Of a stretch of DNA of 64,000 bases, positions 4,301-38,178 are shown piece by piece. Origin of the DNA: a virus; IMG/VR virus record IMGVR_UViG_3300018063_000012, positions 37,318 through 101,317 of that record. One strand, 5' to 3'. The notes beneath the pieces were generated by a model. It was given only the letters and a program-made list of their open reading frames with translations. It had not been told where the DNA came from and did not search any database. The position numbers and the translations under genes are program-made. The stretch's first letter is position 1, and every line of letters begins with the position of its first letter.

Positions 4301-5122
4301 ATGTTTAGAAAGTTAGCGAGAGTCATAGGACTATTTGCCTTGTTGTGCTTAGGGTGCGCGAATACATCCTGCGATACTTTTAAAGAACGGATAACGATGA
4401 AAAATCCGGATATTAAAAAAGTATACGTTGTTCACATCACGGGTAGAATATCAACAGAATGGATTCGTAGAGCAGACAGTGCTTTACGAATAGCTAATGG
4501 GGATCCCGTAATTTTCCATATTAACTCGCCGGGCGGCGGAGCATCAGAGAGCTTCCTGACAGAACACGGACTTTCACTGTTAAGGAAGAAGTATATGTCG
4601 CCAGTATATGTGTACTCAGATTACGGAATTTACTCCGGAGGATATCTAGCGGCACTTCCACTGGGCAAGATAGTTATCGCACCGGCCGGTGGGGTAGGAT
4701 CCATTGGTGTAATTAGTGAGGTTGATATAATCGTAAAGTCAGATTCTATGCGGGGAATTAAACGTATTCTATTTCGTTCAGGTAAGATGAAATGGGTAGA
4801 AGCTGGGTATTATGAATTGACACCCGAACAGACTAAGTACCTACAGAGTATCGTCGATAATGTGTACTCAATGTTTATAGATAGGATTATTGTGAATCGT
4901 CACGACGCTGTCTTTAGAGCAGTGGCTAACAGATTACATAAACAACCATCAATTGCACAAGTAGACTCTGTATTACGAGTTGTTTGTGATGGACGGGAAT
5001 ACGCACCAACCCAAGCACTTGCACTTGGACTAATAGACGGGGTTGCATATTTTGACGAGTTGTTAGAAGTAGTCAAGTATGAGAATATAATTCCGAGTGC
5101 AATGGTAGTCGATATTTATTAG
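4301..5122 (+). CDS. S49 family (SppA-like) peptidase with lipoprotein-type signal peptide
   Basis: INSPGG, SGGY, GSIGV motifs; N-terminal hydrophobic stretch ending LLCLGC. Confidence 0.8.
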   Translation: MFRKLARVIGLFALLCLGCANTSCDTFKERITMKNPDIKKVYVVHITGRISTEWIRRADSALRIANGDPVIFHINSPGGGASESFLTEHGLSLLRKKYMSPVYVYSDYGIYSGGYLAALPLGKIVIAPAGGVGSIGVISEVDIIVKSDSMRGIKRILFRSGKMKWVEAGYYELTPEQTKYLQSIVDNVYSMFIDRIIVNRHDAVFRAVANRLHKQPSIAQVDSVLRVVCDGREYAPTQALALGLIDGVAYFDELLEVVKYENIIPSAMVVDIY

Positions 5123-5135
5123 AAAGGGCGAGGAT

Positions 5136-5996
5136 ATGTCTATTTGGATTCTTTACCACAGAAACTGCCCGGACGGTTTTACAGCCGCTTGGGTTGCTAA
5201 AAAGGCACTTAAGACAGAGGACGATTTCGGATTTGTAAAATTTAAAGCTATGTCTTATGGTGATGATGTCCCTTCACAGATAGAAGATGGGGATAGGGTG
5301 TATATACTGGATTTTTCATTCGCCAGAGATGTGATTGATAAATTAGCTAAACGTTGTAGTGTTAAGATTTTAGACCATCATCAAACATCAGAGAAGATAC
5401 TTAAAGGACTGCCATATGCATTTTTTGATTCTAAAAAATCAGGAGCAATGATGACTTGGGATTACTTTTTCCCCGGAACTGAACCACCTCAGATTGTTAA
5501 GTATGCACAAGATAGAGATCTGTGGACTTGGGAGTTGAATGAGAGTAGAGCGATATCGGCCGCGATGCGCCTGTATGATTATGAGTTCGCTAAGTGGGAT
5601 ACTATTCACTGGAAGTTAAATAACGACTTTAGTGGAATGGTGCGAGATGGAGAAGTGGCACTTTTGCTAACACATCAAACCGTATCAATGATGATTAAGA
5701 ATTGTCTTTGGGCGAAGATTGGAGATTATATGGTGCCAGCAGTAAACTCAGCCTGCTTTATGAGTGAGGTGGGTAATCGACTTTTAGATGAATATCCGGA
5801 TGCACCCTTCTCAGCATACTTTTTTCTGACCGGTAAGGGACAGGAACACTGGGGCTTGCGAGCGGACGGGAAAGTAAACGTTGCACAGGTGGCGGAGAGA
5901 TATGGGGGCGGTGGACATAAGAACGCGGCCGCATTTATAGTTGGGTGTAATACGATTGATGTGTATTCGTCCGAAGAGATGCAAGAGTTTGCATAG
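5136..5996 (+). CDS. DHH/DHHA1 family phosphoesterase
   Basis: YHRNCPDG, LDFS, LDHH, GGGGHKNAA. Confidence 0.9.
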   Translation: MSIWILYHRNCPDGFTAAWVAKKALKTEDDFGFVKFKAMSYGDDVPSQIEDGDRVYILDFSFARDVIDKLAKRCSVKILDHHQTSEKILKGLPYAFFDSKKSGAMMTWDYFFPGTEPPQIVKYAQDRDLWTWELNESRAISAAMRLYDYEFAKWDTIHWKLNNDFSGMVRDGEVALLLTHQTVSMMIKNCLWAKIGDYMVPAVNSACFMSEVGNRLLDEYPDAPFSAYFFLTGKGQEHWGLRADGKVNVAQVAERYGGGGHKNAAAFIVGCNTIDVYSSEEMQEFA

Positions 5997-6480: not shown

Positions 6481-7017
6481 ATGGCAGGCATAACAGAAAA
6501 GCAATGCAGTCCAAATACCGGATGTGGGCAGACCAAGCCCATTAGCGCATTCTTCCGGTCATCCAAAAGTCCGGACGGGTGGTATTATAAATGCACGGCG
6601 TGTCATAAGGCCGGTGTCGGTAGCCGTGGTCCGCGGAAGGCAAAGGCCAAGATTCAAAAGGTGAAACTGGAAGGGCTGTCTGGATTGCAGAAACAGATTG
6701 CTACGGAATTGGTGGAAGGTACTAAAGATTACGGGATCCCACCGATGCCTACGGAGTGGACGTTAGAAACCATTCAGAGGTATGTGCGTAATCTGATGAT
6801 TCAGGAAAGGGCGCAGGGTGGTGCATTTCATCCGTTTACTAAACTGTCCATGATCGAGTGGAAAAAACGGCTGGTAGATAAGGTCGGCAAGGATGAGGCC
6901 GACAAGTTTATCAGCGAGGTGCAGGCTGGGCTGGAAGTGGCACAGGAACCAGTACCGGTAGTCGTTAGTCCAGTGGTGGGCAAGCACTCAGTAAAACGTA
7001 AAGGATTTAAACAGTAA
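6481..7017 (+). CDS. Hypothetical protein with N-terminal Cys4 zinc finger
   Basis: CSPNTGC...K...F...PDG...CTAC; strong SD. Confidence 0.6.
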   Translation: MAGITEKQCSPNTGCGQTKPISAFFRSSKSPDGWYYKCTACHKAGVGSRGPRKAKAKIQKVKLEGLSGLQKQIATELVEGTKDYGIPPMPTEWTLETIQRYVRNLMIQERAQGGAFHPFTKLSMIEWKKRLVDKVGKDEADKFISEVQAGLEVAQEPVPVVVSPVVGKHSVKRKGFKQ

Positions 7018-7441: not shown

Positions 7442-8998
7442 ATGGGTATGAGAAAGGCAGGGATAGGCGACGTGAAAACGATGCAAGGTGCCGCACAGTC
7501 GCTTCTCACAGGTATCAAGCAGAAGATGGGCATCTTAACTACGTGCAAGCATAATTCAGTTAATTGGGTAATCACAACGGAAAGAGTCATCTGCGTGGAC
7601 TGTGAACGGTCGATGCAGAGGGCATATAAGATGTGCCTAAATGTTGCTAAGCTTCTTTGGGTCCTTTTATTTTTGGTGAGTGGATGCACCAAACGGATTA
7701 CTAACGTGATGTGTAATCCACAGGAAGTGTTCACGGTTGTAGCCTCACTGCCATCCGATTCATTGACGGATGCGGCACCGGGACTTCAGACCGCAATCAA
7801 TTCCTTGCCAGCGACTGGTGGTGAAGTTCGGATTGAAGATGGGGTGCATTTAATTGCCAGCAACTGGTCAGTGAATAAATCCAATGTATCACTACGTGGA
7901 ACCAGTATGTTTACTTGCGTACTGAAAGTAGCGGATAGCTCTAATCTGAATGCTGTCAATATTGCGAATCACAACCGGAACATTGAGCTCAGTGAGTTTC
8001 AAATAAATGGTAATAAAAATACACAATCAAGTATCTGGTGTGTAGGTGTGAATGCAAACGGTAACGATATTTATGGTGTCAAGACCAAATATTTGTGGAT
8101 TAGGAATACTAAAAACGCAGGTATTATCTTCGCTAATGGTGCATCAGATGGGGAAGTGTATCGGTGTAGGATTGATTCAACTGGACCGACTGGGAATACA
8201 AGCGTAAATACAGGTTTTGGTGTTCACATTATATCCGGATGTAAGAATATCTGGGTGCAGGAAAATACATTTACTGGCACATCAGCTACGGCCTGCGTGA
8301 GGGTGAATAATGGGTGCAGAGTAATTCGCATTCTGGATAATGGATTTTATAATAATGACCATTCAGGATACGCAGACCGTCGGGCAGTATTTGTGGATGG
8401 CCCCTTAACACGTTGCTGGGATGTGATTGTGTCAGGTTCCAAGATTAAAGGGATGGACGAGAATGGTCTCTTCTTGAATGATATCGATGGGCTGACTGCA
8501 GATGATAACGATATAGATAGTACCGGGTATAACGGTATAGAAGTGAATGGTTCTACAGATATAAAGTTGCGCCGCAATGATATGAACAGGTGTCGTGGGG
8601 AAGGAATGTCCTTGAACCAGAATAAGGGCGCACTGTTAGAACAGAATACGAACATCAACTGCGGCAAGCGCGGGATCCACGTGTACGCGGCAGGGAATGA
8701 TTCAACAACGGATATCGTACTGAACGATAATCATTGTTATAGTAATAGCGACAGCATACTGAACACATGGCACGGGATTGAGATTGGTGTGTCATATCCG
8801 GCCATAGCGCGTCGAATAACGGCAACTAATAATGATTGCGTAGACCAGGGGATTGTGAAGTCCCAGAAGTATGGGATGCAGATTACGAACGACGTTGATT
8901 ACTATATACTGAAGGATAATATCCTGAATCCGAATGCGACGGGTGGGTTGAATGACGGTGGTTACGGAACGCATAAAACGGTTGAGGGGAATCAGTAA
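7442..8998 (+). CDS. Right-handed parallel beta-helix (pectin-lyase-like) protein, probably a lipoprotein starting at ATG 7631
   Basis: LQTAINSLPATGGEVRI cap, Asn/Gly-rich PbH1-like repeats; KLLWVLLFLVSGC lipobox. Confidence 0.75.
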   Translation: MGMRKAGIGDVKTMQGAAQSLLTGIKQKMGILTTCKHNSVNWVITTERVICVDCERSMQRAYKMCLNVAKLLWVLLFLVSGCTKRITNVMCNPQEVFTVVASLPSDSLTDAAPGLQTAINSLPATGGEVRIEDGVHLIASNWSVNKSNVSLRGTSMFTCVLKVADSSNLNAVNIANHNRNIELSEFQINGNKNTQSSIWCVGVNANGNDIYGVKTKYLWIRNTKNAGIIFANGASDGEVYRCRIDSTGPTGNTSVNTGFGVHIISGCKNIWVQENTFTGTSATACVRVNNGCRVIRILDNGFYNNDHSGYADRRAVFVDGPLTRCWDVIVSGSKIKGMDENGLFLNDIDGLTADDNDIDSTGYNGIEVNGSTDIKLRRNDMNRCRGEGMSLNQNKGALLEQNTNINCGKRGIHVYAAGNDSTTDIVLNDNHCYSNSDSILNTWHGIEIGVSYPAIARRITATNNDCVDQGIVKSQKYGMQITNDVDYYILKDNILNPNATGGLNDGGYGTHKTVEGNQ

Positions 8999-11760: not shown

Positions 11761-11839
11761 GACTTCTTCTTATAAGTCTATGTGCCATAAAGATTATTCT
11801 GTATCATTATTCTGTATGATAGAACGGGAGGGTGACTAA

Positions 11840-12079
11840 ATGGCTTGGAGTGAAGCGGCAAGAGCCGCATCGGCGGCAGTTAGACGACAACGTGGTAAGA
11901 AGATTACACCCATGCGACGGAAAGAGCCAGCATATGCTCGAGTAAGCAGGGTGCTGAGAAAGTTGCATCGGGAAAAAACGAAAGCGGACATCCCTTATCC
12001 CAATGCAAAAGAAACAAGTCGATTTAGAACTTTGCAAAAAAGGATTCGTAAAGTTAAGAGTTATACAGTCAAAAGGTAA
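11840..12079 (+). CDS. MAW-leader highly basic protein, copy 1
   Basis: MAWSEAARAASAAVRRQRGKK; GGAGG SD. Confidence 0.85.
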   Translation: MAWSEAARAASAAVRRQRGKKITPMRRKEPAYARVSRVLRKLHREKTKADIPYPNAKETSRFRTLQKRIRKVKSYTVKR

Positions 12080-12081
12080 AG

Positions 12082-12315
12082 ATGGCTTGGTCAGATGCGG
12101 CACGAGCCGCCAGCGCTCAAGTTAGACGTCAGCGGGGTAAGAAGATTATACCAAAAAGACAAATAAAGAGATCGCTAACTAAAAGGTATACTCCAGTTCA
12201 ATTGGAACGCATTAAAGCTGGTCGCCCCCATAAGGGTCGTGAAGGTGGGCTAACAAGACGAGAACATAAAAAAGGTATTAATAGATATGTTCAAATTATG
12301 CGAGGACAAAGATAA
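12082..12315 (+). CDS. MAW-leader highly basic protein, copy 2
   Basis: MAWSDAARAASAQVRRQRGKK; 24 of 77 residues K/R, 4 acidic. Confidence 0.85.
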   Translation: MAWSDAARAASAQVRRQRGKKIIPKRQIKRSLTKRYTPVQLERIKAGRPHKGREGGLTRREHKKGINRYVQIMRGQR

Positions 12316-12605
12316 TGGCCTGGAGTGATGAAGCGAGAGCGGCGGCGTTAGCTAAAAGAAAGGCGAGTCCTAAAAATCGTCAGAGTAATAGGAAACGGGT
12401 GCTAAGTCCATATGGGAATATGAAACGTAAACAGACAGCAGGAATTCTATTCAAACGCAAACAAGCGTATCAAGTAGTGCAAGGGTTAAAGAAACAATTC
12501 ACTAAAGCTTTAAAGACGGGTAATGAAGCCCGCGTAAGGACATTACGTAAAAGATATCAACGAGTGAAAGATACTGGATTTTATATTAGTCGGGGAGGCA
12601 GATAA
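12315..12605 (+). CDS. MAW-leader highly basic protein, copy 3
   Basis: MAWSDEARAAALAKRK...SRGGR*. Confidence 0.85.
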   Translation: MAWSDEARAAALAKRKASPKNRQSNRKRVLSPYGNMKRKQTAGILFKRKQAYQVVQGLKKQFTKALKTGNEARVRTLRKRYQRVKDTGFYISRGGR

Positions 12606-12947
12606 ATGGCTTGGTCAGATGCCGCAAGAGAGGCTTCAGCAAGAGCACGTAAAGGGGGATTTGGTAGATTACGTGCGGCAGTAGATAAAAGACGTAAACA
12701 ACAATTAGAAGGGAGTAGTGTACTATCCTTAAAAAATATTAATCAACTTAAACGGATTCGTAATCGTCAAGCTCGTCGAATTGAATCTAAAGTTAAAAGT
12801 TTACGAGCTAAAGCTACTGGCACATATGCCGGACACCCATCAGATAGACGAGCGCATAGAGCAAACTTAAGACTTCGTAAATTACAAAGCTCTAAATCAG
12901 GAAGTATGGCTGGAGTTAATTGGCATATAAATAGAGGTGGACGGTAA
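12606..12947 (+). CDS. MAW-leader highly basic protein, copy 4
   Basis: MAWSDAAREASARARKG...NRGGR*. Confidence 0.85.
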   Translation: MAWSDAAREASARARKGGFGRLRAAVDKRRKQQLEGSSVLSLKNINQLKRIRNRQARRIESKVKSLRAKATGTYAGHPSDRRAHRANLRLRKLQSSKSGSMAGVNWHINRGGR

Positions 12948-13270
12948 TGGCTTGGACAGACGAAGCCCGTAGAGCATCTGCTTTAGCAAGAATTAATCGC
13001 GGACCTAAACGTGCTAAATATGAACGTGTTATCCGTAAAGTTGATAGGGCGATTAAGAATGACCGTCAAACTATTAATAATATGCAAAAAGTTATTGCTG
13101 GAATGCGGAAGGTTAGACCGGCGATAAGGGAAGTTCAGAAAGCACAGAAACAGTTAGGTAAATATTCTAAACGGTTCCAAATAAATAAAAAGAGGGCATT
13201 GAGAGTGAGACTACGATATCCCGGTTTTTCAGGTTATAAAGGAATTGATATAGCTAAAGGAGGCAGATAA
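12947..13270 (+). CDS. MAW-leader highly basic protein, copy 5
   Basis: MAWTDEARRASALAR...KGGR*. Confidence 0.85.
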   Translation: MAWTDEARRASALARINRGPKRAKYERVIRKVDRAIKNDRQTINNMQKVIAGMRKVRPAIREVQKAQKQLGKYSKRFQINKKRALRVRLRYPGFSGYKGIDIAKGGR

Positions 13271-13591
13271 ATGGCTTGGTCAGATGCGGCACGAGAGGCC
13301 TCAGCAAGAGCACGTAGAGGAAACAGACGGATTAACCCTACTGTAGCAGTAAGTAGAAGTAAAGGGATTTCGTAAGCTTCCGAAGGACAAAGAGAGGTAA
13401 CTATAACTGGACGCCGTTCCTGGAAGGCAAAGATATACCATCCGGGGAAGGGGTCACTGAAAAGACTTAGAAAACTTATTAGAGCAAGTAAAAAGAGTGG
13501 AAATGTCAAAAATGAGACACGGAGACCGCTGCGATACACAAAAGGAGCTACTAAATTACATACATTTTTTCTAATTAAAGGTGGTCGTTAA
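13271..13591 (+). pseudogene. MAW-leader basic protein, copy 6, interrupted by an in-frame TAA at 13373-13375
   Basis: Manual translation MAWSDAAREASARARRG...SKGIS*ASEGQ...FLIKGGR*; 107 codons, the same size as intact copies. Confidence 0.85.
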
Positions 13592-13651
13592 AAAGTGGTA
13601 TCAGAAAGAGTAAAAGATACCGAACATTATATTATTAGAGGTGGACGATAA
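13592..13651 (+). pseudogene. C-terminal remnant of a further MAW cassette
   Basis: KVVSERVKDTEHYIIRGGR* resembles the copy 3 C-terminus YQRVKDTGFYISRGGR*. Confidence 0.7.
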
Positions 13652-13923
13652 TGGCTTGGGGACCTGAGGCAAGAGCGGCTAGTGCTTTGGCTAGACGAAC
13701 GAGCAGAGGATTTGCAAAATTAAATAGACAGAAACGTTTAACTCTTAAACATGCATCCAAATTGACAATGTTACATAAGAAGCTTTCTGGCATAGGTAAT
13801 GTAATAGGTAAAAATCATCCTATGTATAAGATCGCCCAAAAACGGTCAGCAAGAGTGTTTCGTAAATTACAATCACTGAAAAGTAAACGTCCAGAATATT
13901 TTGTGAGTAGAGGTGGACGGTAA
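13651..13923 (+). CDS. MAW-leader highly basic protein, copy 7
   Basis: MAWGPEARAASALARR...SRGGR*. Confidence 0.85.
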   Translation: MAWGPEARAASALARRTSRGFAKLNRQKRLTLKHASKLTMLHKKLSGIGNVIGKNHPMYKIAQKRSARVFRKLQSLKSKRPEYFVSRGGR

Positions 13924-14255
13924 TGGCTTGGTCAGATGCGGCACGAGCCGCCAGCGCTCAAGTTAGACGTCAGAGAGGTAAGACTCTAACTGGATCTAAA
14001 TTAACACCGGCAGGTGCTAAACCATTACAGAAACAGTTAGCGCGACTACGCGTCACAAGACAATCCCAGCGGAGAAACGCATTAGCAGATTTTAGGCTTA
14101 AACATGTCACCAAAACTTCACCCGGAATGCGAAAAATATCATTTGCTGAACGCAGGAAATTTTTGAGAGGATATAGAGGGACTAAAGAGAAAATAAGTAA
14201 AACATTGAAACGATTGAGATTCGTTAGAAATGCATCTAAGAGAGGGGGCAGATAG
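13923..14255 (+). CDS. MAW-leader highly basic protein, copy 8
   Basis: MAWSDAARAASAQVRRQRGK...KRGGR*; first 51 nt identical to copy 2. Confidence 0.85.
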   Translation: MAWSDAARAASAQVRRQRGKTLTGSKLTPAGAKPLQKQLARLRVTRQSQRRNALADFRLKHVTKTSPGMRKISFAERRKFLRGYRGTKEKISKTLKRLRFVRNASKRGGR

Positions 14256-14568: not shown

Positions 14569-14937
14569 ATGAATGGGAAGGATATAAAATCACTGGAAGA
14601 ACTGGTAGGACATTTTATCGAGTTTAAAGAAACAGTGAAAGAAAGATTAGATAGGATTGAAAAGAAGGCAGATAAAGCGGCAAATTTAGCAGAGTCAATA
14701 GCTACGACTGTTAAATCAGATATGCAAACCCTGAAAGATAGTATTAACTCTACAGAGACTGAATTAAAAAATCAAGGAAAGACATTTACCATATTAGCAC
14801 AGATTCCTAAAGTCGCACGTATTATCATATCAATCTTCGTTGCATTCGGCGGATTGGCTGTGGTAGCATTCCTCATTAATAATTGGAGTAAAATAATCTT
14901 CTGGTTTAAAGGTAAGCTTGGAGCTGGGGGTCTATAA
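14569..14937 (+). CDS. Coiled-coil protein with C-terminal TM helix (holin/lysis-associated)
   Basis: Coiled coil followed by IIISIFVAFGGLAVVAFLI; upstream of the endolysin. Confidence 0.55.
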   Translation: MNGKDIKSLEELVGHFIEFKETVKERLDRIEKKADKAANLAESIATTVKSDMQTLKDSINSTETELKNQGKTFTILAQIPKVARIIISIFVAFGGLAVVAFLINNWSKIIFWFKGKLGAGGL

Positions 14938-15219
14938 ATGGAACTGATGAACAATGTAATAAAGGCCAAAGAATCCTTTAAACGACTGGAGTTACATAAA
15001 TCTATCAGAGAAAACTACAAGAGTAGGAAGTTTATTTCCTTCTGCGTAGTCTGGTCCTTCGGAAGCTTGATGTTTTATATGAAAGCGATGACCGCCGCTG
15101 AATGGATCGGATTCTCCGAATGGCTATTAGGTATATTTTTCTTTTTCAATATCGCCGACAAATCGGGGTTACTGGGGATGATTAAGAAACAGGATAGCGA
15201 TACTGAGAGATTGAAATGA
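14938..15219 (+). CDS. Putative holin (two TM segments)
   Basis: SRKF followed by two hydrophobic helices; in the lysis cassette. Confidence 0.6.
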   Translation: MELMNNVIKAKESFKRLELHKSIRENYKSRKFISFCVVWSFGSLMFYMKAMTAAEWIGFSEWLLGIFFFFNIADKSGLLGMIKKQDSDTERLK

Positions 15220-15677
15220 AGTCTATAATTCAGATAGAAAAAGATAGGGAGTATCAACGACTTTATAAAATAAAGAAGTCTATAATTCAGATAGAAAAAG
15301 ATAGGGAGTATCAACGACTTTATAAAATAAAGAATAGAGATAAGATTAATAGTCAAGTCCAAGCGTGGGTTAAAAATCATCCTGACTATTATCCCGAATA
15401 TAGGTGTCAGTATAAGTACCAAATATCATTTAAAGATAAACAAGATATGCTGATTAACCAGAATTCTGAATGTGCTATCTGTAGACAATTACTACAGATA
15501 GATAAAGCGTTTATTGACCATGACCACAAATCAAGTAAGATACGAGGATTACTGTGTTATAATTGTAATATGGGGATAGGTCATTTACATGATTCTATAG
15601 TTGTTCTTGAACAAGCTATTGAATATCTAAAAATATATGCTACGGATACTTCTACAACGACTAAAGATAAAAGGTAA
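15216..15677 (+). CDS. Endonuclease VII-type (His-Me finger) free-standing homing endonuclease
   Basis: CAIC...DHDH...RGLLCYNCNMGIG. Confidence 0.85.
   Translation: MKSIIQIEKDREYQRLYKIKKSIIQIEKDREYQRLYKIKNRDKINSQVQAWVKNHPDYYPEYRCQYKYQISFKDKQDMLINQNSECAICRQLLQIDKAFIDHDHKSSKIRGLLCYNCNMGIGHLHDSIVVLEQAIEYLKIYATDTSTTTKDKR
15219..15332 (+). repeat. Perfect 57-bp tandem duplication (KSIIQIEKDREYQRLYKIK x2)
   Basis: 15219-15275 identical to 15276-15332. Confidence 0.95.
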
Positions 15678-16290
15678 TTCCGCATACATAAAAGTGGATC
15701 CAACCGGTTTTGTGGTGCCAGAGAAGGCGCTGCTTTATCCACCGGCCGCAAAAGCATTCAATCAATACTTAGATTGGATGGCCGCAGAAAGAGAACTACA
15801 CCCATTGGTAAATGACTGCTTTCGTAGTCCACAGGAGCAGATTGAAATTAAGAAAAAGAAACCGACTCTGGCATACTTGCCCGGTCAATCAGGTCACAAT
15901 TGGGGGATCTCTGTAGATTTATCTACGGCATTACTACGGCAAGAGGCGACTAAGAATGGGATTAAATATGCGACTATGAGAGAAGACTTAGCACGCTTCG
16001 GGTGGACACCATCACCTAAAGAGGCGTGGCATTTTAATTTTCTAGAAGGACGCGCTGGAATTCAGGATTGGGTATCCTTTAAATACGGGACGGCCTGGGA
16101 CGGTGCAGATGATTTACCGGCGCATGATCTTCAACAGGCATTGCAGAAGTTAGGATACTATAATTTCGATACTATTAAAGCTGTTCAAGCATTCCAGAAA
16201 GACTATATGTTAGATATCGACGGTAAGGTCGGTCCTAACACCCGTAAGGTTTTACTAATAGCTACGGCAGAACTCTCTATCATTTCCTAA
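15637..16290 (+). CDS. Endolysin: M15 (VanY-like) Zn peptidase plus peptidoglycan-binding domain
   Basis: FRS..EQ, SGHNWGISVD, EAWH; C-terminal AVQAFQ...DGKVGPNT. Confidence 0.85.
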   Translation: MLRILLQRLKIKGNSAYIKVDPTGFVVPEKALLYPPAAKAFNQYLDWMAAERELHPLVNDCFRSPQEQIEIKKKKPTLAYLPGQSGHNWGISVDLSTALLRQEATKNGIKYATMREDLARFGWTPSPKEAWHFNFLEGRAGIQDWVSFKYGTAWDGADDLPAHDLQQALQKLGYYNFDTIKAVQAFQKDYMLDIDGKVGPNTRKVLLIATAELSIIS

Positions 16291-16427: not shown

Positions 16428-17252
16428 ATGTCACAGACAAAAACTGAAGACGAATTGAAGAAAGAGGCGGAGGAAAAAGCACAGGAAGAGGCGAAGGCTA
16501 AAGCCGAGGCTGAAAAGAAAGCTAAGGATGAGGCAGACGCGAAGGCTAAAGCAGAGGCAGAGGAAAAAGCTAAAGCAGAAGCCGAGGTTAAGAAACAGCT
16601 TGATGATTTAGTTAAGCGTGGAATTTTGAAGAAAGAGGGCGGGGTATTAGTTGAGGCGAAGTTTGACCCAACTTTGACACCAGCCTACAAAGAGTTAAAC
16701 ACAACGGTAGTTCAGAAAATAAGCGCCGCAACAGATAGAGTTGCACAACTCGAGAAAGAGTTGGAAAAGACTTCAAATGTCCTTAAATCAAAAGAGGATA
16801 TGGAAGCGGCAGACAAACAGCGGATGACCGAGGAGTTGAGTAAATTGAAAAGTGACTTGACGATTGAAAATCAAAAGGCTCGCGAAGCCGGGATTCAATT
16901 GCTGAAGACGCAAACTGCGGTAAAAAAGGGATTGCCCTTTAACTTCTTGGCGTATGTAACTGGAGAGACGGCCGAGGCGATTGAGGCCTCAGTTGAGAAA
17001 GTAATGGGAGATTTCGCTCTTCAAGCGAATAAATTTACTAAAGAACAGTTACAAGCCGCAGAGGCCGCGGCCGCAGAGAAGGCAAGCAAGGAGACCGAGG
17101 AGAAACTAAAACCTCGGGGTAAATCAACCCAGAATGCCGCTGAACCGGGACATATCTTTACTCGCGAAGAGATTAGAAGAATGACCTCGGCTGAATTTGC
17201 TGCAAACCGAGTCGATATCCTGCGCCAACAGAGCGAAGGATTAATAAAATAA
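16428..17252 (+). CDS. Capsid scaffolding protein
   Basis: Ala/Glu/Lys-rich coiled coil directly upstream of the capsid gene; C-terminal FTREEIRRMTSAEF. Confidence 0.75.
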   Translation: MSQTKTEDELKKEAEEKAQEEAKAKAEAEKKAKDEADAKAKAEAEEKAKAEAEVKKQLDDLVKRGILKKEGGVLVEAKFDPTLTPAYKELNTTVVQKISAATDRVAQLEKELEKTSNVLKSKEDMEAADKQRMTEELSKLKSDLTIENQKAREAGIQLLKTQTAVKKGLPFNFLAYVTGETAEAIEASVEKVMGDFALQANKFTKEQLQAAEAAAAEKASKETEEKLKPRGKSTQNAAEPGHIFTREEIRRMTSAEFAANRVDILRQQSEGLIK

Positions 17253-17267
17253 ACGGAGGATTAGACT

Positions 17268-18560
17268 ATGCCCAGTTCATTAGGTAGTCAGAATTTAGCA
17301 CCCAACATTGCGGAAGCTTTTGGTAAACTTGTACCAGAAGTGTTTTCGCAGGAAATCGAGTTGAAGACTCGGGAATTGGGGTTTACCCGATTTCGGGATT
17401 TTGTAGTTTTGAAAGAGGATCTGCAGAAAGATCCAGGGAATTCTCTTCACATTCCTAAAGTAGCTGAATTGCGTGGTGCGCAGAGCCTCGGTCAGACTAA
17501 AATTCTGGCTGGGTCCGGTCAAGCTATTAACACTGGCTTTTTGACCCTGACTCCGACTGAATTTGGTGATGAGATTCAAATCACCCAGTATGCTGGCCTT
17601 GTATCGCCATCTGATTTGGTAGATATGGCACGTGAACTGTTAGCCCGTCAGGCTCTGAAGTCTGAAAATTTTACAGTTCGTGACGTTATGTTCGGAGCTT
17701 CCGCTAACCGGCGTTTCGCTGGTGGTGTGGCCGCGAAGACTGACGTTACCGCAGATTTAGACAAGGATGATATCGACGCTGTAGTCGAGAACCTTGAGAA
17801 CAACGAGTCTTTGAAATGGGCAGGAGAAACCTTTATGGGTTTCATCCATCCGTTTGCGAAAACGGTCATTTTGAATGATGTTGTGAGCGCCGCTGTGTAT
17901 CAGGCCGCAGTCGGTGGACAGCTGTATGCTGGTGAGATTGGTATGGTAAATAGATGCCGGTTTATCGAATCTTCCTACGTTCCTCAGGATGCATATTCTG
18001 CGGCTGGGTTGGCTTCGGCCGGTTCCTCCGGTATTACGATCGCTGATGCCAATGGTTATACTTTGGCTCCGAATCTGTGTCGAGCGGAGACGATTACCTT
18101 TACGTATACTGCTTCTGGAGATTCTTGGGCCGTGTCCGGTTCCAAATCCGGAGCGCGTAAAGCCGCTCTTTTTACTTCGACTGATAACCCGAACGATGCT
18201 ACGAAGAGTCCTGTGGTGGCGAAAGCCGCGTCATATACTGACGGTAACGCAACGACTTATAAAGTGGCGTTGGCTGTGGAAGATGAAGATGGGAATACGA
18301 TCGGCTACGATGTTGTACTGAACGCTGGCGCTATGACTGGCGCGGCCTCTGATGACACCGCTACATTGCTGATTGTGGTTCATACCTTGACTTCTATTTT
18401 CGGTCAGAGACATCTGGCCTTCGGTGTGATTAAGCCAGTTACCTTCTTGGGTGCTGAGGCATTTGACTATGGACGTATCGTGGGCATAGCTTGGAACGCG
18501 TTTTGGGCATGCGACTTTCTTCATAAATCATATGGATATGTCATGCAGGCTCTAAGGTAA
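17268..18560 (+). CDS. Major capsid protein (HK97 fold, N4-gp56-like)
   Basis: PEVFSQEI, EFGDEIQIT, FIHP, GEIGMVNRCRFIES, DYGRIVGIAW; follows scaffold; strong hairpin downstream. Confidence 0.85.
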   Translation: MPSSLGSQNLAPNIAEAFGKLVPEVFSQEIELKTRELGFTRFRDFVVLKEDLQKDPGNSLHIPKVAELRGAQSLGQTKILAGSGQAINTGFLTLTPTEFGDEIQITQYAGLVSPSDLVDMARELLARQALKSENFTVRDVMFGASANRRFAGGVAAKTDVTADLDKDDIDAVVENLENNESLKWAGETFMGFIHPFAKTVILNDVVSAAVYQAAVGGQLYAGEIGMVNRCRFIESSYVPQDAYSAAGLASAGSSGITIADANGYTLAPNLCRAETITFTYTASGDSWAVSGSKSGARKAALFTSTDNPNDATKSPVVAKAASYTDGNATTYKVALAVEDEDGNTIGYDVVLNAGAMTGAASDDTATLLIVVHTLTSIFGQRHLAFGVIKPVTFLGAEAFDYGRIVGIAWNAFWACDFLHKSYGYVMQALR

Positions 18561-19368: not shown

Positions 19369-19796
19369 TGGGAATACAGTATTTATCGGAAAAACAAATA
19401 CGGCAGATGAAGATAGACTTTGAAAAGTCTGTTTTGATTGCCGGTTTTGATATTACATATAAGAAGTTCGAGAACTTAAATGAATCGGATCCTCTATATG
19501 ATGGAGAACGTAAAAAGAAGGATTTAATATATCGGAATGTCAAGATTAAAGCCCTTGTGAATCTGAACCCTCGGGCGTGGGTGACAGATGACTTGGGTAA
19601 TAGGAAAGATATAGATGCACAATTTACTATAGCTGCAAAGTCATTTGAGGATTTGCAGTTGGACGCGGTGGATGCAAGAGATAGGGTTGAGTTTGGAGAC
19701 GAGGAGTATATTATAATACAGATAAGAAAAGGTCCGCTTCCGATGGGAGAGGTATTATCATATATGTTATCCTGTAAAACAATGGTGGGAATCTAA
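19368..19796 (+). CDS. Putative head closure (stopper) protein
   Basis: Size, position, DRVEFGDEEYII motif. Confidence 0.6.
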   Translation: MGIQYLSEKQIRQMKIDFEKSVLIAGFDITYKKFENLNESDPLYDGERKKKDLIYRNVKIKALVNLNPRAWVTDDLGNRKDIDAQFTIAAKSFEDLQLDAVDARDRVEFGDEEYIIIQIRKGPLPMGEVLSYMLSCKTMVGI

Positions 19797-20296
19797 TGAT
19801 TAAAGTCACCATAGAAAAAAATGACCTTGATAAACTTAAATCATTATTTTCTGCATTAGGGGAGAATGCTCCAAGAGCCGCCGATGGACTTATGCAGACT
19901 ATAGCATCAGATTTGAAGTTCGCCTTTAAACAGAATCTATGGGAACGTAAACTAAAATTGGAACCACTTAAACCATCATACTTACAGAGTAAAGTTGCAA
20001 TGGGTAGGTTTCCACAAATATTGATTAGCACAAGTCAAATGGTAGCGTCGGTAGAATCTCGAAAATTAGAGAACTTTGTATACTTTATTGGAGTACCATC
20101 AGGGAAGGTGCATAAAAAGACAGGTATTAAATTGAGTGATTTGGCGATGATACATGAGTTCGGTTCAATTGCAAGAGGTATACCACCACGTCCAGCTTGG
20201 ACATTGACAGCAGTGCGATTTGAGAAACAGGTGCCAAAGATAATTGATAAGTTCCTAACTAAGTTCGCTAAAGATTTACTAGCAGGTAAAGTATAA
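19796..20296 (+). CDS. Neck / tail completion protein (virion morphogenesis, HK97 gp10-like)
   Basis: AMIHEFG...IPPRPAW. Confidence 0.75.
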   Translation: MIKVTIEKNDLDKLKSLFSALGENAPRAADGLMQTIASDLKFAFKQNLWERKLKLEPLKPSYLQSKVAMGRFPQILISTSQMVASVESRKLENFVYFIGVPSGKVHKKTGIKLSDLAMIHEFGSIARGIPPRPAWTLTAVRFEKQVPKIIDKFLTKFAKDLLAGKV

Positions 20297-20619
20297 TGGC
20301 TTGGACAGAGGCCGCAAGAGCCGCGAGTGCATTAGTTAGACGACAGCGTGGTAAGAAGATTACTCCAATAGGAGATAAGAAATTTGCCGGACTTAAACTA
20401 AAAGCAACTGGAAAATCACTAACGAAAAGAGTACCGTTCGGTATTAATAGAGCGGGGAAGACTGTATATACAAGAGTGCCGATAAAACCAAACCTGAAGT
20501 ATAAGAATAGGAAATCTAATCAACAGAAACCCTTTGTTCCAAGTGGTAGATTTTATAACGTGGTAGGACGCCACGGCTGGAAGAAGAGGATTAAAAATAC
20601 AATAAAGTTGGGCGGATAA
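20296..20619 (+). CDS. MAW-leader highly basic protein, dispersed copy 9
   Basis: MAWTEAARAASALVRRQRGKKITP...KLGG*. Confidence 0.85.
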   Translation: MAWTEAARAASALVRRQRGKKITPIGDKKFAGLKLKATGKSLTKRVPFGINRAGKTVYTRVPIKPNLKYKNRKSNQQKPFVPSGRFYNVVGRHGWKKRIKNTIKLGG

Positions 20620-21530: not shown

Positions 21531-23039
21531 ATGACAATTGGGATTAACATAACAGAGTTGGTGTCGCAAGGTTCACCGGTCTTAGAAGGTGATAACGAAC
21601 TGACTCCGGGATTCTTGGTAGTGTCTAAACGAGGCCCGGCTGACTTTCCAATACTGATTACCAGTATGAATCAATTCAAAAGACTATTCGGTGAGCATAC
21701 TACTGCCGGATACGGAGCTTATGTTTTGGAAGGTTATTTTTTGAACGGCGGAAGAAAAGCTTTTGTGAGTCGTATAGTTGGCTCCGGTGCCGCGGCTTCC
21801 GCGGTTACATTGGTCGATAGAGCCAGTACGCCATTGGACACATTGACGATTGAAGCTGGATATAAAGGACGACTTGACAAAGGAACTTGGGGGGATAATC
21901 TATCGGTAGCTATTACTGATAACGTAGACGATACCACTCTGTTTGACTTAGAAGTACTTCTCTCCGGTGTGACTAAAGAAGTATGGCGAGGAGTGACTCC
22001 TGCGACAGCTGTCACAGCAATAAATGACTCTGTATCAGGTTCCGAATATATCAAAGCGACTAACGAGAACTCTACTTCAACAGCACCGGATAATAATCCA
22101 GCAGTCGGAAGTTCAAACTTAAGTGCCGGTGTCGCAGGTTCCGCCCCGGCCGTTACAGCATATAATGGAGTGCAGGCTGACTTTACAGGGGTGTATGCTT
22201 TCGATGCACTTGATATTAGTCATCTGGCTAATGCGGAGTCGACTGATGCAACGCATTTAGATAATCTGCGAGATTATTGTTCAGCGAGAGGAACCATTCT
22301 TGGAGTGGCCTCTATTCCAGTTGCATCAACTGTGTCTTCCGCTAAGACATTCGGACAGGCATTGCAAATTTCAAATGCTTATATGGCACTGTATGGCGGA
22401 TGGGTTTTGGTGAGTGACCCAATTGGTTCGGGTCCTAATCCACTTAAATGGGTGTCCCCGGTTGGACATGTCCTTGGAGTATATGCCAGAACATTGCGTG
22501 ACCGTGGAGTGCATAAAGCCCCGGCTGGTGTAACAGACGGCCAGCTAAAAGGAGTTTTTGATATTGATATGGATGTGAATAATGATACAGACTTGACAGA
22601 CTTAGCCACTAATGGTGTGAATACGCTTAAGGCAGTGCCAGGTTATGGTAATTGCGTTCTGGTGTCCAGAACTCTCTCCAAAGATGTTCGGTGGAGATTC
22701 GTGAACGTTCGGAACTTGTTTAACTATGTAAAACGGGCGCTGAAGAATGGATTGGCTTTCGTTCAGCAAGAACCGAATGATGGGGTGCTAAGGGCGAAGG
22801 TTAAGAATAACACTGTCCTTCCTTTTATGCGCACTTTGTTTCAGGCAGGAGCTTTTGGGTCCGGTAAATTTGAGGACTTGGTAAGTATCATTTGTGATGA
22901 ATCTAATAACCCGCCAAACGAGATTGAGTTGGGAAATTTCCATCTGGATATGACTTTCTTCCCAAGCAAACCAGCGGAGAGTATTTTCATCTCTGTAGCC
23001 CAGCAACAGACAGGTAGTTCAGCCGCGTCCGAGACTTAA
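21531..23039 (+). CDS. Contractile tail sheath protein
   Basis: RGVHKAPAG, WRFVNVR, EPN, ICDESNNP, PSKPAE. Confidence 0.95.
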   Translation: MTIGINITELVSQGSPVLEGDNELTPGFLVVSKRGPADFPILITSMNQFKRLFGEHTTAGYGAYVLEGYFLNGGRKAFVSRIVGSGAAASAVTLVDRASTPLDTLTIEAGYKGRLDKGTWGDNLSVAITDNVDDTTLFDLEVLLSGVTKEVWRGVTPATAVTAINDSVSGSEYIKATNENSTSTAPDNNPAVGSSNLSAGVAGSAPAVTAYNGVQADFTGVYAFDALDISHLANAESTDATHLDNLRDYCSARGTILGVASIPVASTVSSAKTFGQALQISNAYMALYGGWVLVSDPIGSGPNPLKWVSPVGHVLGVYARTLRDRGVHKAPAGVTDGQLKGVFDIDMDVNNDTDLTDLATNGVNTLKAVPGYGNCVLVSRTLSKDVRWRFVNVRNLFNYVKRALKNGLAFVQQEPNDGVLRAKVKNNTVLPFMRTLFQAGAFGSGKFEDLVSIICDESNNPPNEIELGNFHLDMTFFPSKPAESIFISVAQQQTGSSAASET

Positions 23040-23040
23040 G

Positions 23041-23514
23041 ATGAAGATTTGCTCTAAATGTAGAATAGAGAAAGAGCTCTCCGATTTTGGATTAGATAAC
23101 AGAATGAGACTGGGGAGAAGATCCGCCTGTCGGGAATGTAATGCTAAATTTAAACGAGAGCAGTATTCTAAAAATAGAGAACAAATTTTAATAGACGTTA
23201 AAAAATACCAAGCAAAATATCCAGAAGTGGGATTAAACGCCACTTTGAAACGGTCATATGGAATAATGAGTAAAGATTGGGATAGGATGTTTAATACCCA
23301 AGAAGATATGTGTGCAAGATGTCATAAACTAATGGATAGAAATAAGAGAAGAGAAATTCACGTCGACCATAATCATTTAACTGGACAAGTGCGAGCTTTA
23401 ATCCACCGCAGGTGTAACCTTTTGATTAGTGGAGTAGATGATAAGGATGAACTAAAGTTGTCGCTAGAATACTTGAAAAAGTATGATAGAGAATGGGCTA
23501 TGGAGGTTAAATAA
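23041..23514 (+). CDS. Endonuclease VII-type homing endonuclease
   Basis: CSKC...CREC zinc finger; CARC...HVDHNHLTGQVRAL..RRCN. Confidence 0.8.
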   Translation: MKICSKCRIEKELSDFGLDNRMRLGRRSACRECNAKFKREQYSKNREQILIDVKKYQAKYPEVGLNATLKRSYGIMSKDWDRMFNTQEDMCARCHKLMDRNKRREIHVDHNHLTGQVRALIHRRCNLLISGVDDKDELKLSLEYLKKYDREWAMEVK

Positions 23515-23516
23515 TT

Positions 23517-23975
23517 ATGACAGAGAAGTGGAAAGGTAATCATTTCGTAGTAGAGATTGACGGGATTCAGTCCCCAACTATAGATGCCGTGCAGGGATTG
23601 TCAATGGGATCCACTACGGCACTTGAAATCGTGGATGCGGGAACTAATTTAATTGATAAGATTAGCTCCGGGATTGTAAAATTCGCACCACTTATTTTGA
23701 TGCGTAATATGGACGGTTCACCGGCTGACCAAGCTTTTATTGACTGGTTTAAAGAGATGTTTGATTTGACTGACCCTATTGCATCACTGGGGAGTAATAC
23801 CAGACGGAATGGTGCAATTGTTAAAAGGGAATTCGGTCAAGAAGTCCTACGCATAGGATTTGTAGGTGCATGGATTCGTGAGATGACACTCGGCGACCTG
23901 ACTTCAAATGCCGAAGATCTGTGGAAAAGAACTATTACATTAGAACACCAAGGATTATTCGAAACAATATCGTAA
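23517..23975 (+). CDS. Tail tube protein (T4 gp19-like)
   Basis: FVVEIDGI, RRNGAI, AW...GDL, ITLEHQG; follows the sheath. Confidence 0.85.
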   Translation: MTEKWKGNHFVVEIDGIQSPTIDAVQGLSMGSTTALEIVDAGTNLIDKISSGIVKFAPLILMRNMDGSPADQAFIDWFKEMFDLTDPIASLGSNTRRNGAIVKREFGQEVLRIGFVGAWIREMTLGDLTSNAEDLWKRTITLEHQGLFETIS

Positions 23976-36674: not shown

Positions 36675-38178
36675 TATTGATTTAATAATACCAGATAATT
36701 TTATTGGAATTCCCTACGACTTCCAGAAGGTGGGTGCCGCCTTTTTAGTAGCCAAAGATAGATGTCTACTAGGGGATAGTATGGGACTTGGCAAGACTAT
36801 ACAATCACTTTTAGCAATGTGTATACTAAAACGCATAGATAAATTGCCAGCACGAGTACTTGTTGTAACCGTAAACTCCGCGGTGTTTCAATGGGAAAAA
36901 GAATTTAAGAAATTTACGACCGGATATAATGTACTCACGGTAACTGCTAAATTAAATCCTACCGAACGAGCCAGCTTCTATGGTAATCTACCAGAAGAAT
37001 GTGTTATGATTACAAACTATTCGCTGATGAGAATAGATAATGAGTTCATCTTACAATTGGGATTTAAATTAATTATATGGGACGAGTCAGCTATTTTCAA
37101 AAATTATAAGAGCAAGACATTTAAAGCCGCCCAGGATTTAAGTATGGCGGCTGAACGGTCATGGGCATTATCAGCGTATGCGATGCCGAATAATCCATTT
37201 GAGTTATTCGGAGTATACTCTGTAACTGTGCCAGACTTATTCGCCCGATATTATGGGACAAGACGATTTGATGGGATTACAAAGTTTAGAGAATTGTATA
37301 CACTTGAAGAGCCAATTATTGGACGAGGCGGAGTACCAAAAATGACGGAACAGGGATATATCATAAAACAGACAGTAGGATATAAAAACTTGGATAGATT
37401 AAAACAACGCATATCACCATTTTATATTGGACGCACATATGCAGATGTAGCCGTTCAAGTTCCTAGTCTGATTGTAAAAGAAGCTAATTTAGAAATGACT
37501 AATACTCAAAGAGCACTATACTATGAAACAGAACATGGAATAAACGGTAAGATTCCAATGGATATGATATTGGCTAAATTTGTCGCTCTCCAGCAGATAA
37601 GTAATGGAGTAGATTTTTATAAACATACTAAAGGCACGGATGTATCACCAAAAATAGAAGAGATTAAAAGATTCCTATCCGAAGAGTTGGAAGAGGAAAA
37701 GATAGTAATATTCTCTAAGTTTCGACAGTTTATTGATATACTTGAAGATGAATTGAAGGAGTATTCCCCAGTCAGAATTACTGGCGACGAGAGTATTGAT
37801 GAACGAGAACGTAATAAGGAAAAGTTTACTAACGACCAGAACTGCCGGGTCTTACTGATGACACAAGCGGGCGGATTCGCCCTGAACTTACAAGCCGCCC
37901 GGGTGATGATGTTTGTAGACCTACCATTTTCTTTTGGAATGATGGAGCAGATAATTGGGCGTATTCGCCGGATTGGAAGTGAACACGAGGTAGTTGTAGC
38001 TGTATTCCTAATGATGAATGATAGCTTGGATAGGCACGTCCTCGATGTTTTACGGTCTAAAAAAATGATAATTGAACAAGTTATGGGCGGACGAGATGTA
38101 TTAGATAATGTTGCCCAGAATGACATCAAAGAAATACTAAAACGTAGATTGGAAGAGAAAGGTCAAGATGTGTCCTAA
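36643..38178 (+). CDS. SNF2/DEAD-like helicase
   Basis: DSMGLGKT, WDESA, ALNLQAA, QIIGRIRRIG. Confidence 0.9.
   Translation: MNVSDLKSLTDIDLIIPDNFIGIPYDFQKVGAAFLVAKDRCLLGDSMGLGKTIQSLLAMCILKRIDKLPARVLVVTVNSAVFQWEKEFKKFTTGYNVLTVTAKLNPTERASFYGNLPEECVMITNYSLMRIDNEFILQLGFKLIIWDESAIFKNYKSKTFKAAQDLSMAAERSWALSAYAMPNNPFELFGVYSVTVPDLFARYYGTRRFDGITKFRELYTLEEPIIGRGGVPKMTEQGYIIKQTVGYKNLDRLKQRISPFYIGRTYADVAVQVPSLIVKEANLEMTNTQRALYYETEHGINGKIPMDMILAKFVALQQISNGVDFYKHTKGTDVSPKIEEIKRFLSEELEEEKIVIFSKFRQFIDILEDELKEYSPVRITGDESIDERERNKEKFTNDQNCRVLLMTQAGGFALNLQAARVMMFVDLPFSFGMMEQIIGRIRRIGSEHEVVVAVFLMMNDSLDRHVLDVLRSKKMIIEQVMGGRDVLDNVAQNDIKEILKRRLEEKGQDVS

Follow-up and report, generated by a model that had tools for sequence, protein, structure and literature searches.

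A predicted leader helix shared by hypervariable polycationic phage proteins recurs in head-assembly genes of other phages

To our knowledge, the mechanism by which internal or ejected proteins are selected is known for only a few phages (T4, P1, phiKZ-like phages and P22), and we know of no general loading signal for phage internal proteins. Among small basic proteins and peptides of viruses, protamine-like proteins and adenovirus protein VII condense DNA, the phiKT gp28 disruptin is a cationic lysis peptide and lambda N is an arginine-rich motif (ARM) peptide. The T4 internal proteins form a diverse set with only the capsid targeting sequence (CTS) in common, which loads internal proteins and foreign cargo into the scaffolding core (PMC3012670). 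In phage P1, a cryo-EM study reports that DarA-Hdf pairs attach to the inner face of the capsid as well as to DNA (PMC12810830). For phage-type polyvalent proteins, packaging and delivery together with the DNA have been proposed (Iyer et al. 2017, PMC5512222).

The window analysed here is a stretch of 64,000 nucleotides from the genome of a freshwater-sediment phage (IMG/VR record IMGVR_UViG_3300018063_000012, positions 37,318 to 101,317). Positions 11840-14255 hold seven intact ORFs of 77-113 aa, one broken copy and one orphan stub, arranged head to tail. The ORF list and the translations confirm the tandem of seven intact reading frames and one interrupted copy described in the initial annotation. 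In the following list the array entries rest on both sources, except for copy 5 (ORF list) and the broken copy and orphan remnant (translation).

11840..12079, + strand, MAW copy 1: 79 aa, 33% K+R, C-terminus TVKR
12082..12315, + strand, MAW copy 2: 77 aa, 24 K/R, 4 D/E, C-terminus RGQR
12315..12605, + strand, MAW copy 3: 96 aa, C-terminus SRGGR
12606..12947, + strand, MAW copy 4: 113 aa, C-terminus NRGGR
12947..13270, + strand, MAW copy 5: 107 aa, C-terminus AKGGR
13271..13591, + strand, broken MAW copy: one single in-frame TAA at 13373-13375, frame runs on to IKGGR and a stop
13592..13651, + strand, orphan C-terminal remnant of a lost unit: 19 codons, C-terminus IIRGGR
13651..13923, + strand, MAW copy 7: 90 aa, leader MAWGPEAR, C-terminus SRGGR
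13923..14255, + strand, MAW copy 8: 110 aa, C-terminus KRGGR
20296..20619, + strand, dispersed MAW copy 9: 107 aa, directly 3' of the Neck1/tail-completion gene

The stop codon of the orphan remnant overlaps the ATG of copy 7. The same virus record contains two further copies that start with MTW, both located ahead of the window (G000:15674 and 27491), and the phage has in total at least 11 small, extremely basic genes with a common, predicted 15-residue start helix.

In translation every intact array ORF starts with MAW[STG][DEP]xARxA, in agreement with the common leader that had been claimed, and a search for the leader DNA pattern gives 9 occurrences in the window, compared to 0.00 expected from 100 shuffles. 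The array proteins contain 27-33% K+R and 2-7 acidic residues, with a computed pI of 11.7-12.0; the earlier estimate of about 30% Lys+Arg thus holds, and the residue counts given for copy 2 (24/77 K/R, 4 acidic) are exact. Most copies indeed terminate with (R/K)GGR, namely copies 3, 4, 5, 7 and 8, the broken copy and the orphan tail, the exceptions being copies 1 (VKR) and 2 (RGQR). The codons of this terminus (e.g. AGAGGTGGACGG) serve also as the Shine-Dalgarno site of the next ORF, and the ORF junctions read TAATG or TAAATG. No excess of sigma-70-like promoters or terminators was found in or around the array. The stretch is contained in two freshwater-sediment DNA runs, one of which is probably the source sample, and no RNA run is listed. 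A contig of one run, again probably the source sample, spans the broken copy with no differences; variants or joints were not seen in either run, the contigs of the second run not including 13113-13916.

Beyond the leader the bodies are largely unrelated, as initially noted. Local alignment of body against body gives a mean z-score of 0.56, with z>3 in only 3 of 55 pairs. The first 51 nt of copy 2 are identical to copy 8 and identity then drops to background; the leader DNA of copy 5 is nearly identical over about 43 nt to both copies upstream of the window, and copy 4 shares its leader subtype with the broken copy. Overall, the leader identity blocks cover about 50-70 nt and end abruptly. The hypervariability of the bodies may arise from a weak, mainly compositional constraint combined with recombination at these homology blocks. 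The array is also a clear case of cassette evolution: selection, together with recombination or gene conversion, preserves the tag, and the bodies can drift freely.

The T4 internal proteins IPI, IPII, IPIII and Alt are likewise small, mostly basic and highly diverse with one short N-terminal peptide in common, and they occupy a hyperplastic myovirus locus, as is the case here, where the low body z-scores, the abrupt leader blocks, the broken copy and the orphan stub mark a variable locus with only the tag in common. However, the leader does not resemble the T4 CTS in sequence, nor is it followed in the leader alignment by a conserved Glu-terminated or L/I-x-E protease site (the gp21 cleavage site in T4). 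The motif is moreover repeated inside large proteins, which is not known of the T4 CTS. Nor is this phage T4-like, its capsid protein being only about 25% identical to BCD7/BRock-type capsids, and packaging here is a prediction. No relatives of the capsid protein were found in viral and metagenome contigs. A second likeness, to DNA-condensing viral polycations, concerns composition only and involves no sequence relationship: 27-33% Lys+Arg, a pI of about 12, few acidic residues and no compact fold. For copy 1, AF2 predicts three helices at residues 5-18, 31-50 and 56-78 with a pTM of 0.31, and the bodies are generally predicted to be long helices.

The leader follows the consensus A-W-[ST]-[DE]-x-A-R-x-A-[AS]-x-x-[AV]-R-[RK]. 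Across 59 distinct leaders M1, W3, A7 and R8 are invariant, while leader-bearing contigs range from 47 to 69% GC. Because every synonymous codon is in use in these leaders (Ser AGY and TCN, Arg AGR and CGN), the leader is conserved as a peptide, and the alignment supports its interpretation as a modular peptide element under protein-level selection. A DNA- or RNA-level element was rejected as the main explanation since the leader codons are free to vary. The leader helix itself is a structure prediction; AF2 places it at residues 5-18 in both a polycation and an ADP-ribosyltransferase (ART)-like member. On a helical wheel the high-information positions W0, A4, A7, A8, A11, R5 and R12 cluster in the sector of 340-140 degrees, with variable positions on the opposite face, so that conservation is one-sided and the conserved face consists of Trp, four Ala and two Arg. 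Even between phages with no detectable similarity in their capsid and portal proteins the motif hardly varies, which fits better with a universal ligand or a self-contained role than with a co-evolving capsid contact.

The charge of the proteins would also be in line with unpackaged intracellular nucleic-acid binders, that is, polycations coating phage or host DNA or RNA with the leader as a binding surface or oligomerisation helix. Possible roles of such binders are genome shielding, nucleoid disruption or translation control. The extremely basic composition, the 2-3 net positive charges of the leader in this phage and bodies that look free to drift under mainly compositional constraint are compatible with this explanation. 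We consider it improbable, as internal copies of the motif have a mean net charge of only +1.3 (16 residues from Trp), Ala and Trp rather than Arg dominate the conserved face, and the genes are consistently found in head/connector modules and prohead protease fusions rather than among early or regulatory genes. ARM peptides such as lambda N also have a short N-terminal helix with Arg and Trp, but they carry a dense Arg cluster and are early/regulatory, whereas the leader has a Trp and Ala stripe with two invariant Arg in a late structural context. The conserved face, the low charge of the internal copies and the head/connector context rule out an identity as an ARM RNA-binding peptide.

Scans of the copies and of long-bodied relatives against PHROG, Pfam and NCBIfam revealed no significant family, and PDB sequences yielded nothing in a profile search with the threshold as loose as E<=10; the earlier impression that this is not a described family is thus borne out for the characterised families in these collections. 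A full-length homologue search with copy 8 in 5.8 billion proteins retrieved only copy 8 itself. Nothing was found among cultured phages by megablast with the array region or by tblastn with the 30-aa leader, a query that is probably too short and of low complexity. The motif string retrieved only irrelevant papers from the literature, and a term search of the polyvalent-protein paper (PMC5512222) gave no mention of it. As judged from these comparisons, the leader helix appears to be an undescribed and unnamed portable module that is widespread in phage head-assembly genes.

A profile search with the motif identifies a family of 673 representative proteins, some of them small and basic with the motif starting at residue 1, others large with 2-6 internal copies. 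Among the best 150 representative matches about 100 are small proteins with the motif at residue 1, and about one third carry 2-6 internal copies. The proposal of an N-terminal address tag therefore stands in so far as the leader is a modular peptide tied to head morphogenesis, but not as regards its restriction to the N-terminus. In cellular genomes, surveyed with one genome per species for 185,579 prokaryotic species, the motif was detected at only 11 loci; it is thus almost virus-specific, contrary to a distribution mainly in cellular genes unlinked to head modules. Five other viral records carry 2-6 copies each, three of them at 100% CheckV completeness. The search for co-occurrence with head genes suggested in the initial annotation was positive. 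In many unrelated viral contigs small MAW genes alternate with those for terminase, portal, MuF, scaffold and capsid, and for 42 of the 72 MAW genes in fetched loci a homologue of TerL, portal, MuF or scaffold is encoded no more than 3 kb away, these homologues being detected with seeds from only three contigs. MuF is present in every checkable MAW-bearing record, a raw, uncorrected co-occurrence, and this includes the virus record studied here (G000:33229-33852), which also has a putative portal ORF of 520 aa, assigned from position and size only (G000:29911-31473).

In this phage the array is located between the prohead protease gene (4301-5122) and the scaffold (16428-17252) and capsid (17268-18560) genes. 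Copy 9 lies between the Neck1/tail-completion gene (19796-20296) and the sheath gene (21531-23039). The array ends 300 bp ahead of two membrane-protein genes and an endolysin gene (14569-16290), and this position ahead of holin-like and endolysin genes would be accounted for if the proteins were lysis accessory peptides, i.e. cationic amphipathic helices that permeabilise the envelope, as the predicted cationic helices of the bodies would allow. Such a role is very improbable given that other copies in this phage adjoin terminase, fibre and neck genes, that the family resides in head modules and not in lysis cassettes of other phages, and that fusions of the motif with head proteases and polyvalent proteins exist. 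A disruptin-type gene is a single small cationic gene in a lysis cassette replacing spanins; here an array abuts the lysis genes and copies are also dispersed elsewhere.

Internal copies are found in Mu gpI-type protease/scaffold proteins (P0024, P0042, P0151), where they are located in the region after the protease domain, in DUF2213 protease-like proteins (P0005, P0006, P0027, P0155), in 2H polyvalent proteins (P0009, P0051) and in an Alt-like ART / ParB-like / zeta-like polyvalent protein (P0019). JBD25, a cultured Mu-like phage examined as a control, has a protease/scaffold protein without the motif. Ahead of the Trp the internal copies have a conserved [VLI]-x-[NK]-[ATG] flank, and the residue before the Trp is small both here and in M-A-W. 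An alternative to docking is that the internal copies function as linkers or in processing. Extended to the whole family, this would mean that the helix marks polyprotein cut sites, for a prohead protease or autoproteolysis, and that stand-alone genes are pre-cut units involving no targeting. The location between domains of multi-domain proteins, often with a protease domain, and the conserved flank are consistent with this idea, and Met removal or cleavage before the small residue would produce the same N-terminus. It is nonetheless rather less probable than intracellular binding, since cleavage at residue 1, the position in most of the best matches, releases nothing, the full 15-residue helix face is conserved far beyond the need of known prohead protease sites, and motif carriers without any protease domain exist.

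The position after the protease domain in the Mu gpI-type proteins also bears on a role in assembly only, in which the helix binds coat or scaffold and the proteins are accessory scaffolding proteins or chaperones that reside in the procapsid and are gone or degraded before or during DNA packaging and are neither part of the virion nor ejected. The long helical bodies without a compact fold resemble scaffolding proteins, and MAW genes adjoin scaffold and capsid genes. Against this, proteins with a pI of about 12 and 30% K+R are expected to remain on the incoming DNA and not to exit, the phage has its own scaffold gene, and the motif is found also on effector-type domains without an assembly role (ART-like, 2H, ParB-like, zeta-like), so that we regard this role as unlikely. 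An identity of the MAW proteins as phage scaffolding proteins was rejected, as no copy matches the PHROG scaffold family and the scaffold gene is separate from the MAW copies (16428-17252, phrog_233).

We favour, with a probability of roughly one half, the reading that the helix serves tailed-phage head morphogenesis as a portable docking module, by which the attached cargo is recruited into the head. Each unit would encode a small helical polycation that is not globular and begins with a self-contained, capped α-helix. The conserved face of this helix, with its Trp, Ala stripe and two Arg, would most likely contact some conserved part of the procapsid during assembly; candidate partners are the MuF/portal complex, the scaffold and the capsid interior. 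The recruited cargo would consist of polycations in this phage, and in others of small ART-like proteins, proteases or polyvalent effector domains. The outcome in this phage would be several internal head proteins that are associated with the packaged DNA and probably exit together with it, acting as charge neutralisers, as co-ejected DNA shields or both; the DNA condensation and anti-defence functions put forward in the initial annotation are putative. By analogy the data support a head-associated docking tag that would be functionally like the T4 CTS and not homologous to it.

P1 DarA/Hdf and MuF/SPP1 gp7-type proteins are head-internal and DNA-contacting, as proposed for the MAW proteins, and are encoded in morphogenesis modules, and MuF genes adjoin MAW genes in several contigs. 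However, they are larger and folded and have no described short common tag, and no homology to them was found. In large polyvalent-type phage proteins, ART, ParB-like, zeta-like and 2H domains are separated by the same helix motif, and the array resembles an unfused, one-domain-per-gene version of such proteins. Polyvalent proteins comprise two to fifteen effector domains, whereas the 77-113 aa proteins of the window contain no Pfam, PHROG or NCBIfam domain and have only the helix motif in common with them.

More tentatively, the docking module might be a general capsid-loading or MuF/portal-docking tag for arbitrary cargo in many unrelated tailed phages, used in stand-alone genes or as beads of a polyprotein, with arrays as fast-evolving cargo libraries shuffled by recombination at the tag. 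If true, packaged effectors and anti-defence candidates could be predicted straight from metagenomes, the entry into the capsid of unfused counterparts of polyvalent-protein domains would be explained, and a compact tag for loading cargo into phage capsids would be at hand.

The assumption that the cargo consists of polycations does not extend to the family, in which the bodies have a median K+R content of 22% and some appear ART-like. For a member with a YHGT body (AF2 pLDDT 62) ADP-ribosyltransferase folds recur among the Foldseek matches, none at E<=0.001. Some bodies thus resemble small ADP-ribosyltransferase folds in the predicted models, although the assignment is weak. Feature matches in the ESM Atlas provide leads only for the ART-like reading of YHGT bodies. 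MAW genes with such possibly ART-like bodies directly adjoin MuF in three loci (L013, L017, L026), and fused ART-MuF proteins are annotated in cultured phages.

Translation of the ORFs between 11840 and 14255 confirms, exactly as the initial annotation had described it, a tandem array of seven intact genes and one interrupted copy encoding basic mini-proteins. All seven intact products (77-113 amino acids) start with MAW[STG][DEP]xARxA, the leader, which is followed by a divergent body. They contain 27-33% Lys+Arg and 2-7 acidic residues each, with pI values of 11.7-12.0. The window has nine occurrences of the leader DNA pattern, against none in 100 shuffled sequences. Two more copies, starting MTWTDEARRASALARRG, lie upstream of the window at positions 15674 and 27491 of the whole virus record (G000), giving a tally for the record of ten intact copies, one broken copy and one stub.

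MAW genes in the window (copies marked + from the ORF list and translation)
11840-12079, +, copy 1
12082-12315, +, copy 2
12315-12605, +, copy 3
12606-12947, +, copy 4
12947-13270, +, copy 5
13271-13591, broken copy between copies 5 and 7; one in-frame TAA (13373-13375), otherwise open to IKGGR
13592-13651, orphan tail of 19 codons ending IIRGGR, directly 3' of the broken copy
13651-13923, +, copy 7
13923-14255, +, copy 8
20296-20619, copy 9, immediately 3' of the Neck1/tail completion gene

The array ORFs are joined at TAATG or TAAATG, and the codons of the terminal (R/K)GGR (e.g. AGAGGTGGACGG) also serve the following ORF as its Shine-Dalgarno site, so dual coding accounts, at least in part, for the C-terminal motif. 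Within the 79-nt gap 5' of the first MAW gene, where no sigma-70-like promoter was called, a direct repeat consisting of two copies of ATTATTCTGTAT (11796-11826) is a possible operator or promoter element of the array.

The virus record comprises 101,317 bp (estimated completeness 82%), the window being bases 37318-101317, and all large ORFs of the phage share one strand. Its sequence is present in two freshwater-sediment metagenome runs. The phage is novel; its capsid protein shares only about 25% identity with the capsid proteins of Bacillus phage BCD7, a Bacteroides phage and Streptomyces BRock-like phages.

Genome setting of the array
G000:28336-29847, putative terminase ORF, 503 aa, upstream of the window (from size and order only)
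G000:29911-31473, putative portal ORF, 520 aa, upstream of the window (from size and order only)
G000:33229-33852, MuF-domain gene, upstream of the window
4301-5122, head maturation protease (PHROG match)
5136-5996, DHH phosphoesterase (phrog_4771, E 4e-73), immediately 3' of the protease gene, inside the morphogenesis region
14569-14937, ORF with coiled N-terminal part and hydrophobic C-terminal stretch, between array and endolysin
14938-15219, ORF with hydrophobic stretches resembling two membrane segments, between array and endolysin
15216-15677, endonuclease VII-like gene (PHROG match)
15637-16290, endolysin (PHROG match)
16428-17252, scaffold (PHROG match)
17268-18560, major head protein (PHROG match)
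19796-20296, Neck1/tail completion (PHROG match)
21531-23039, tail sheath (PHROG match)
23517-23975, tail tube (PHROG match)

The ORFs at 14569-14937 and 14938-15219 match no annotated PHROG family and are likely holin-type lysis genes. Three endonuclease VII/HNH-like genes are dispersed in the structural region, preceding the ORF at 7442 (6481-7017), amid the lysis genes (15216-15677) and between sheath and tube (23041-23514). At its start the ORF at 15216 repeats a 19-aa segment perfectly in tandem (KSIIQIEKDREYQRLYKIK twice).

The bodies had been called hypervariable and largely unrelated, and this holds: alignments of one body against another within the phage score at background (mean z 0.56), with z above 3 in 3 of 55 pairs. 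Leader subtypes, by contrast with any body relationship, are common to copies with unrelated bodies. The first 51 nt are identical in copies 2 and 8, 53 nt are identical in the two upstream copies, and copies 4 and 6 (the latter the broken copy) have the stretch from -12 to +47 in common; past each leader block identity falls abruptly to background. Breaks in the assembly graph of the probable source run also fall at the leader repeats. The shared blocks and graph breaks, added to the copy with the nonsense mutation and the orphan stub, indicate that the array turns over through recombination or gene conversion in the leader; constraint on the bodies appears to be mainly compositional.

When IMG/VR was scanned with a degenerate DNA pattern, 27 loci sharing this N-terminus came up, many of them multi-copy, on contigs of 47-69% GC. 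The 59 distinct leaders never vary at M1, W3, A7 and R8 and hardly at A2, A10 and R15; every synonymous codon occurs, including both Ser and both Arg codon families. This codon usage speaks against a DNA- or RNA-level element as the main explanation and marks the leader as a peptide element. An HMM of its first 20 residues, searched in six frames through this record and the pattern-scan loci, matched about 75 ORFs, in each at the N-terminus. AlphaFold2 places the leader of copy 1 within a helix (residues 5-18) followed by two more helices with no compact fold (pTM 0.31), and the leader helix recurs in a relative bearing a different body. Drawn as a helical wheel, the motif gathers its high-information positions (W0, A4, A7, A8, A11, R5 and R12) on one side and varies on the other. 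In the alignment, the conserved Ser/Thr-Asp preceding the helix and the Gly that often follows it resemble capping residues.

Searching 1.84 billion representative proteins with a profile built from the first 30 residues gave 673 matches (E<=0.001). Among the best 150 of these, about 100 are small (64-178 aa, median 94) with the motif at residue 1, bodies of median 22% K+R and 5% D+E, and basic C-termini. About 45 are large (200-1950 aa) and carry 2-6 internal copies with the logo [VLI]-x-[NK]-[ATG]-W-[ST]-[DPE]-[EA]-A-R-x-A-[AS]-[LAI]-[EA]-[AV]-R-[RK]. The description of the motif as an N-terminal leader thus stands for the small class but not for the large one. Arginine-rich RNA binding is disfavoured because the conserved face consists of Ala and Trp and the internal copies have little net charge.

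Large motif-bearing representatives
P0024, P0042: Mu gpI-type protease/scaffold (phrog_328; tblastn to features annotated 'protease (I) and scaffold (Z)')
P0151: Mu gpI-type protease/scaffold (PF10123)
P0005, P0006, P0027: protease-like (DUF2213/phrog_760/phrog_530 group)
P0155: same protease-like group, plus NUDIX domain
P0019: motif, Alt-like ADP-ribosyltransferase, motif, DGHHR (ParB-like) region, P-loop/zeta-like 'minor head protein' part
P0009, P0051: N-terminal 2H/LigT phosphoesterase

In P0024 and P0042, both from outside the window, a Cys-rich CPSC...C.C segment follows the protease domain and precedes several hundred residues of repeated units, each led by a W-S-D-E-A-R helix.

The proposed linkage of the leader to head genes is borne out in other phages. 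In three contigs annotated with PHROG (L010, L011, L013), MAW genes are interspersed among those for the terminase large subunit, portal, MuF-like head morphogenesis protein and scaffold. Of the 72 MAW genes on the fetched loci, at least 42 have a terminase large subunit, portal, MuF-like or scaffold homologue by BLAST no more than 3 kb away, a lower bound as seeds came from these three contigs only. MAW genes, at 2-6 copies each, are also present in five other viral records; CheckV puts three of the five at 100% completeness, and one has a tandem array of five copies. In prokaryotes (one genome for each of 185,579 species) the same pattern occurs at only 11 loci, mostly on MAG contigs, so the leader is not mainly a cellular feature unlinked to head modules.

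MuF is found in this record and in each checkable MAW-bearing record. Three MAW genes (L013:5016-5450, L017:4429-4773, L026:6175-6537) abut the MuF gene and encode proteins of 115-145 aa with a [YF]HG[TS] strand directly after the leader. These bodies give weak ADP-ribosyltransferase (ART) signals, namely ESM Atlas features and recurrent Foldseek ExoA, KptA and PARP folds below significance. As cultured actinophages have genes annotated 'ADP-ribosyltransferase domain and MuF-like fusion protein', the unfused neighbours would be the layout expected were the helix to stand in for a covalent link.

In the reading with the best support, the helix would be a portable docking module of head morphogenesis and recruit its bearer into the procapsid, and the polycations of the window would be internal head proteins associated with packaged DNA. 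Its rivals, each less probable, are an assembly-only, scaffold-like role, nucleic-acid binding inside the cell, a processing or linker motif and, least likely, lysis peptides. Among the main weaknesses of the docking reading is that the motif hardly varies between phages whose head proteins show no detectable similarity. The functional parallel would be T4, where diverse internal proteins have only the capsid targeting sequence in common (PMC3012670); the MAW leader is not homologous to that tag, lacks the T4 cleavage site and additionally forms internal repeats. Hallmark domains of the phage-type polyvalent proteins of Iyer et al. (PMC5512222), for which packaging and delivery with the DNA are proposed, are 2H, ART and ParB; term searches of that paper yielded no mention of the motif. 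P0019, P0009 and P0051 hold such 2H/ART/ParB-like domains. That the leader is not a described family agrees with our searches, in which the motif is described neither by an entry of Pfam, PHROG, NCBIfam or PDB nor by a paper in the library searched, and in which every source annotation that turned up for a small motif-bearing protein was 'hypothetical protein'. The motif proteins would belong to a known kind, tag-directed head-internal proteins; the interest of the tag is that it is short, widespread and directly testable.

Directly 3' of the MuF gene, upstream of the window, lies an 84-aa ORF with 31% K+R (G000:33879-34133, equal to L043:1869-2123). Over 47 aa, its C-terminal half (GARFxxLE...AKGGASxPxAxAAxxGRxKYG...) shares 60% identity with an ORF lying among the MAW genes of three other loci (L007, L016, L025). 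The ORF and its relatives form a second family of small basic head-module proteins, which accompanies the MAW genes.
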